Assembly: GCF_003334815.1 (NCBI RefSeq)
Contig: NZ_QOWO01000001.1
Source: Escherichia coli
Lineage (GTDB): Bacteria; Pseudomonadota; Gammaproteobacteria; Enterobacterales; Enterobacteriaceae
Length of the DNA stretch: 64,000 nt
Strand: one strand, 5' to 3'
Shown here: in pieces, positions 45,252-45,497 of the stretch
Position numbering within the stretch: the stretch's first letter is position 1
Layout: each line of letters begins with the position of its first letter
Notes under the pieces: model-generated
What the model saw: only the letters and a program-made list of their open reading frames with translations
What the model was told of the DNA's origin: nothing
Database searches by the model: none
Translations under genes and position numbers: made by a program

Positions 45252-45299
45252 TGTAATATCCTTTCTCTTTCTTAGACAGTACCTTACGGCACTGGTGTT

Positions 45300-45450
45300 A
45301 ATACCCGATCTTCTGCGCATCCTCGCGACTAATGACAACCCTAACCCAGCTCTATGTGGGTAAAGCCTCTCATTAGCCGCGCGAACCTCTGCAACGGAAG
45401 ATCATTCATAGCAACAATACATTAGTTTCCAGTGAATTGCTGCCGTCAGC
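45300..45450 (-). promoter_or_regulatory. pnp 5' leader (RNase III-processed autoregulatory region)
   Basis: Position between the rpsO terminator and the pnp start; structured leader known for this locus; exact stem positions not computed. Confidence 0.5.
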
Positions 45451-45480
45451 TTGAAAAAAGGGGCCACTCAGGCCCCCTTT
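45308..45480 (+). ncRNA. sraG: Candidate sRNA SraG antisense to the pnp leader (placement approximate, from recollection of the K-12 map)
   Basis: Established location between rpsO and pnp on the opposite strand; boundaries not verifiable from sequence alone. Confidence 0.3.
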
Positions 45481-45485
45481 TCTGA
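45454..45485 (-). terminator. rpsO rho-independent terminator
   Basis: Minus-strand hairpin ggggcctgagtggcccc followed by a T-run, just after the rpsO stop. Confidence 0.7.
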
Positions 45486-45497
45486 AACTCGCAAGAA

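Follow-up and report, generated by a model that had tools for sequence, protein, structure and literature searches.

The rpsO-pnp intergenic region of Escherichia coli: an autoregulatory pnp leader with a UUG start codon and the antisense RNA SraG

Polynucleotide phosphorylase (PNPase) is a major RNA-degrading enzyme that is required for growth in the cold and, in several pathogens, for virulence, and the pnp region is a textbook case of a ribonuclease controlling its own mRNA. The autoregulation of pnp has reportedly been studied by the Portier, Regnier, Hajnsdorf, Deho and Babitzke laboratories. In E. coli the pnp leader is cut by RNase III, PNPase removes the small RNA that is left paired, and the pnp mRNA is then inactivated by RNase E (PMC5029454; PMC9032294). 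The processed leader is also bound by CsrA, with one site lying over the Shine-Dalgarno (SD) sequence, which blocks translation (PMC5029454; PMC7652899), and even without RNase III PNPase still represses its own translation (PMC5029454). Antisense to this leader runs the small RNA SraG (b4449 in K-12; Rfam RF00082; Argaman et al. 2001, Fontaine et al. 2016), which pairs perfectly with the pnp leader to within 3 nt of the AAGGA element and blocks 30S binding in vitro; the SraG-leader duplex creates new RNase III sites (PMC5029454). SraG shares both its perfect complementarity to a 5′ UTR and the new RNase III cuts in the duplex with the AsflhD/flhD and GadY/gadXW pairs. Unlike in those pairs, the pnp leader alone is already an RNase III substrate, and SraG mirrors its hairpin. 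Antisense transcription at or near pnpA, as with SraG, has been described for RliD of Listeria and ref41 of Enterococcus, with no sequence similarity to SraG reported (PMC5029454).

The locus analysed here is part of a 64,000-nt stretch of E. coli DNA (contig NZ_QOWO01000001.1), referred to below as the window. Positions 42583-46583 are an exact copy of NC_000913.3 3308500-3312500 from E. coli K-12 MG1655 (4,001 bp), and K-12 coordinates are obtained as window position + 3265917. The segment 45100-45800 was matched in all 5,426 of the 5,426 complete E. coli genomes, at 99% identity or more in 5,409 of them. The pnp coding sequence (711 aa; K-12 b3164, NP_417633.4) occupies 43116-45251 on the minus strand according to the ORF list, the K-12 annotation and the PGAP annotation, and rpsO, on the same strand, spans 45498-45767 including its stop codon in both the K-12 annotation and the ORF list. 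The TAA stop of rpsO (45498-45500, minus strand), evident in the sequence and in both of these sources, forms the upper edge of the interval; truB, also on the minus strand, lies upstream of rpsO in the curated K-12 record. A gap of 246 bp between rpsO and pnp, as proposed in an earlier note made from the sequence alone, is what the ORF list and the K-12 annotation give (45252-45497). Both closest known systems are thus present at the same place: SraG is identical to its K-12 counterpart in sequence, position and shared terminator, with no difference, and the leader has the locus and sequence of the E. coli pnp autoregulatory leader (RNase III/PNPase/RNase E/CsrA), with a stem-loop between promoter P2 and the SD sequence and a UUG start. 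In what follows the K-12 identity, the coordinates, the fold, the Rfam match and the order-wide conservation of the UUG, the SD sequence and the hairpin were computed here, and the transcripts, cleavages and regulatory effects are taken from the literature on the identical sequence.

The window holds several other RNA elements, all on the minus strand. Nearest to the interval is the S15 leader, the rpsO translational operator (RF00114, 117.6 bits, 45711-45825), which lies immediately upstream of and overlaps the rpsO start. A repetitive-element-type match to naRNA4 (RF02564, 68.1 bits, 47338-47408) is found beyond truB, and an naRNA4 match occurs at the corresponding place in E. albertii. Further away are RNase P RNA (1985-2361), the rimP leader (52107-52207), tRNA-Met (CAT; 52296-52372), tRNA-Leu (GAG; 56155-56241) and the greA leader (62894-63015).

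Read on the minus strand from 45251, pnp begins TTG CTT AAT CCG ATC GTT..., with the first codon read as methionine, and the same start base is used in the curated K-12 record NP_417633.4 and in the PGAP annotation of another MG1655 assembly. An AAGGA SD sequence (45259-45263, minus strand) lies 7 nt before the TTG. For comparison we retrieved 120 loci, each from a different Enterobacterales species, with a degenerate pattern for the peptide RKFQYGQHT. Among these loci, which come from related species and hence do not count as independent events, TTG occupies the homologous start position in 117, GTG in 3 and ATG in none. The spacing of AAGGA to this codon is 7 nt in 74 of the 120 loci and 8 nt in a further 23 (97/120 together). 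The UUG start has an SD sequence at the proper spacing and no conserved start upstream of it. The three GTG starts belong to Providencia species (L063, L065 and L100), whose intergenic regions measure about 400 bp (L063 and L100) or about 300 bp (L065); Providencia L081 and L108 retain TTG.

An alternative start has to be considered, since the E. coli frame upstream of the TTG is open for 50 codons and includes an ATG at 45320-45318, 23 codons upstream; initiation there would yield a 734-aa protein, with the TTG read internally as leucine. That the protein record carries a version number of 4 (NP_417633.4) also indicates an earlier revision, which presumably concerned the pnp start. However, this ATG is embedded in invariant sequence (GAGGATGC), the 3′ arm of the RNase III hairpin, and lacks a properly spaced SD sequence, and what is conserved across the order is AAGGA followed 7-8 nt on by TTG or GTG, the codon that both the curated and the PGAP annotations take as the start. 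An upstream ATG had been named in the earlier note as a challenge to its TTG assignment; such a codon does exist in E. coli, but in 91 of 121 loci (the 120 species together with the window) the frame upstream of the start runs back to a stop codon without passing an ATG, and its commonest open length is 5 codons. In published experiments a 30S toeprint was seen 15 nt from the UUG and a TTG-to-TGA mutant lost pnp translation (PMC5029454). On this comparative and published evidence we reject the ATG at 45320-45318 as the pnp start and give it practically no chance of being correct. The two annotations, the 120-species comparison, the toeprint and the mutant together settle initiation at the TTG (45249-45251), where the earlier note had placed it. 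The open frame contains a further TTG at 45338-45336, and the mechanical ORF list therefore gives a product of 740 aa; other species do not share this upstream reading frame, which in E. coli falls within the RNase III hairpin and invites misannotation of the start.

The minus strand of 45500-45240 folds with a minimum free energy (MFE) of -98.1 kcal/mol (z = -5.24), and none of 200 shuffled sequences did as well. From 5′ to 3′, the MFE fold consists of a terminator hairpin (approximately 45482-45454), a weaker hairpin over the P2 region, a 97-nt stem-loop (45403-45307) and a 7-bp hairpin (45294-45277). The 97-nt element, which is supported by the MFE fold, the pair table and conservation, is the stem-loop 'R' that serves as RNase III substrate (45307-45403, minus strand); it answers the suggestion of the earlier note that the leader be folded in search of a long RNase III stem, being both long and stable and lying in the pnp 5′ UTR past the rpsO terminator. 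Its core arms, at approximately 45367-45385 and 45320-45338 on the minus strand, are nearly invariant. The small hairpin just before the SD sequence (45277-45294, minus strand) has a 7-bp stem and a GUAA loop, is supported by both the MFE fold and covariation, and falls in the leader segment to which the 5′ 42 nt of SraG pair. RNase III is known to cut the pnp leader at +39 and +77 from the P2 start, a spacing of 38 nt (PMC5029454). On the predicted stem, only the pair A45370-U45335 fits a 38-nt excised top with a 2-nt stagger, and from this geometry we infer that the exact cuts would lie near 45371/45370 and 45333/45332. That the gap holds an rpsO terminator and an RNase III-processed autoregulatory leader, as the earlier note stated, agrees with the fold, the comparative analysis and the literature. 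In Rfam 15 we found no family for the pnp-leader strand; the conserved structure is represented there by the antisense SraG alone.

The comparative data bear out this fold. Of 109 intergenic regions whose limits could be set, 107 contain the hairpin core arms CGCGCGGCTAATG and CATTAGTCGCGAG. Projected on an alignment of 73 species, the E. coli structure was 84.5% paired, compared to 42.5-46.5% in controls with slid partners, a measure favoured by the fact that the projected structure was itself taken from the alignment. More weight attaches to the compensatory changes, and the covariation score of the same 73-species alignment was 0.215 versus 0.075-0.109 in the slid controls. In these 73 species pairing reaches 95.9% in the core helix (helix 6), where 9 pairs are invariant; in the basal helix (helix 5) 9 of 12 pairs carry compensatory changes, and the apical part of the hairpin likewise displays compensatory changes. 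The hairpin preceding the SD sequence (helix 7) has changed on both sides at all 7 of its 7 pairs. From the MAFFT alignment, RNAalifold predicted just two elements, the terminator and the invariant core; the variable basal stem and the pre-SD hairpin were missed by it and were seen only by projecting the E. coli structure. In a group of Pantoea, Tatumella and Erwinia loci (L016, L044, L052, L053, L070, L073, L077 and others), extra sequence is present before the hairpin core.

Across the order, the core arms of roughly 17 nt, which contain the GGA of GCGAGGAUG, are thus almost invariant, while the remainder of the stem drifts with compensatory changes. This constraint on the core arms exceeds the needs of pairing. 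Tentatively, and with clear reserve, we suggest that it could reflect sequence-specific reading by PNPase, S1 or CsrA, or the use of both strands, and that a weak start codon, never AUG in the 120 species, could be obligatory to the autoregulation. To our knowledge, neither the core-arm constraint nor an obligatory weak start has been worked out in detail.

At the upstream end of the leader lies a bidirectional intrinsic terminator (45454-45482), identified by the fold, the terminator scan and conservation, which serves as rpsO terminator T1 on the minus strand and as the sraG terminator on the plus strand. The plus-strand call consists of GGGGCC-ACTCA-GGCCCC followed by CTTTTCT (45460-45476), and on the minus strand TTTTTT follows the GGGGCC-loop-GGCCCC element, as in an intrinsic terminator that works in both directions. 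The terminator scan does not list the minus-strand copy; A-U pairs that lengthen its stem into the T-run are the probable reason. The GGGGCC...GGCCCC element is invariant across the 73 species, and T1 and the sraG terminator have been described as a single bidirectional terminator (PMC5029454). In one locus, L109 (Yersinia pestis NCTC5923), the rpsO-pnp region is 1707 bp long and an insertion sequence sits in the loop of the shared terminator (GGGGCCAAGTTG[IS]CAAGTTGGCCCC); it carries two ORFs (199 and 309 aa) and inverted ends, and the pnp leader hairpin downstream of it is intact. Judged from its position, the insertion should remove the terminator of both rpsO and SraG in this Yersinia pestis strain. 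An annotated insertion element at this site was mentioned by Fontaine et al. (PMC5029454).

The promoter positions rest on published mapping combined with inference. The geometry of the RNase III stem, taken with the published +39 and +77 distances, would place the P2 region at 45409-45450 on the minus strand, with transcription predicted to start near 45409-45413 and TAATGT (45424-45419) as the likely -10 box; TAATGTATTGTTG of this region is present in the 73-species consensus. On the plus strand, the hexamer TAATAT (45254-45259) lies between the SD sequence and the start codon of pnp on the other strand and ends 6 nt before the mapped sraG start at 45266, a position that makes it the candidate for the published sraG -10 box. 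A -10 box at 45254-45259 would necessarily put the -35 region within pnp coding DNA, a short way beyond the edge of the interval. A simple sigma-70 consensus scan over 45000-46000 and 44700-45300 called neither P2 nor the sraG promoter, and did not call the further-upstream plus-strand promoter mentioned by Fontaine et al. either. Both P2 and the sraG promoter are therefore weak matches to the consensus.

SraG itself can be placed to the nucleotide. K-12 sraG (b4449, NC_000913.3 3311183-3311398) corresponds to 45266-45481 on the plus strand of the window when the K-12 annotation is aligned to it, as the earlier note had advised. The 216-nt primary transcript, antisense to the pnp leader, is supported by b4449, by Fontaine et al. 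2016 and by Rfam. The Rfam model RF00082 matches 45310-45481 (+) over its full length (model positions 1-177) with 164.3 bits and E = 8.5e-31, exceeding the gathering score of 50 bits. SraG occupies the rpsO-pnp gap but runs opposite to the two genes, and this arrangement recurs in all 19 of 19 other genera. RF00082 covers an older, short form of SraG: its 5′ end falls 44 nt short of that of b4449 and 2 nt inside the older 5′ end, a difference that results from the revision of the end by Fontaine et al. 2016. By circular RT-PCR, run both with polyphosphatase and without it, the SraG start was mapped 42 nt upstream of the old annotation, northern blots revealed the 216-nt primary transcript together with forms of about 190 nt, and mutation of the -10 box abolished the 216-nt RNA (PMC5029454). 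The 5′ 42 nt (45266-45307), which are needed to repress pnp (PMC5029454), are absent from the Rfam model match at 45310-45481. The earlier note had correctly put SraG on the opposite strand, as Rfam, the K-12 annotation and Fontaine et al. 2016 all indicate. It described SraG as a candidate sRNA whose ends it could not place exactly; SraG has been published as a mapped transcript that affects pnp, with ends at 45266 and 45481.

We compared the two strands of the hairpin. In each of 107 species the pnp-strand form was the more stable, with a mean of -47.3 kcal/mol versus -31.2 kcal/mol on the SraG strand (mean difference -16.1 kcal/mol). This advantage is explained by a median of 5 G.U pairs that turn into A.C mismatches on the SraG strand. 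Several of these G.U pairs are in turn conserved, with GU at columns 167-224 in 70 of 73 species and UG at columns 160-231 in 68 of 73. In all 19 genera tested, the match to the Rfam SraG model runs antisense to pnp. The E. coli sraG -10 hexamer TAATAT is found at the same place in 35 of 120 species, a count made at a single fixed offset, at which shifted promoters are missed. Because the hairpin is more stable on the pnp strand in every one of the 107 species, the conserved structure belongs to the pnp leader. We read the order-wide conservation as that of the pnp leader, and the range over which SraG is conserved as a transcript may be narrower than its Rfam family implies.

A stronger version of this reading would take the 'SraG' family to be defined in fact by conservation of the opposite strand, the pnp leader; SraG would then be a by-product confined to certain lineages and, across most Enterobacterales, would do little by itself. 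The strand difference of about 16 kcal/mol, the conserved G.U pairs, the -10 hexamer retained in just 35 of 120 species and the lack of an Rfam family for the leader strand all point in that direction. So does the size of the effect in E. coli: removal of the sraG promoter raises pnp mRNA and PNPase by a small 1.3-fold, and no trans targets have been found there (PMC5029454). The same experiment, however, marks E. coli SraG as a real transcript with its own promoter, whose removal has a measurable consequence (PMC5029454); SraG also appears in a published listing of ProQ-associated antisense RNAs, and in Yersinia it has been reported as a regulator of another operon (PMC5029454). A hexamer comparison at one fixed offset would, moreover, miss sraG promoters that have shifted. 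We consider the by-product reading a possibility, though on balance an unlikely one.

A further proposal is that SraG works mainly in trans, on other mRNAs, and overlaps pnp incidentally. In its favour, the affinity of SraG for Hfq in vitro is sub-nanomolar to nanomolar, and in Y. pseudotuberculosis it represses YPK_1206-1205 (PMC5029454). In E. coli, however, ten candidate targets gave no response, deletion of hfq changed neither the level of SraG nor its effect on pnp, and repression requires pairing of the SraG 5′ 42 nt beside the pnp SD sequence (PMC5029454). A mainly trans-acting SraG is accordingly very improbable, far more so than a by-product, and we keep to a leader-encoded structure that carries the conservation, overlapped in E. 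coli by an antisense RNA acting on pnp.

Put together with the published work, these elements explain how pnp expression is controlled. Transcripts from P1, the rpsO promoter, either stop at T1 or read through it, and P2, just downstream of T1, yields monocistronic pnp mRNA whose leader is about 160 nt long. This leader forms the long stem-loop and is cut in both arms by RNase III. PNPase then removes the small RNA still paired to the new 5′ end, which exposes the message to RNase E and also lets CsrA bind, so that translation is blocked. Translation of pnp initiates at a weak UUG codon 7 nt past AAGGA. From the other strand, a promoter whose -10 box probably lies between the pnp SD sequence and start codon produces the 216-nt SraG, which ends at the T1 hairpin read in the opposite direction.

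The pnp leader, its UUG start and SraG are all already known in detail, and the locus provides a clean check of the genome scan, in which the earlier reader's account was correct. What is added here are the ends of SraG in window coordinates, the universality of the non-AUG start and the conserved structure on the pnp strand. No evidence contradicting the overall explanation of the rpsO-pnp region was found, and we hold it as close to certain that this intergenic region is, as in E. coli K-12, a multi-layered control region that keeps the level of PNPase constant.
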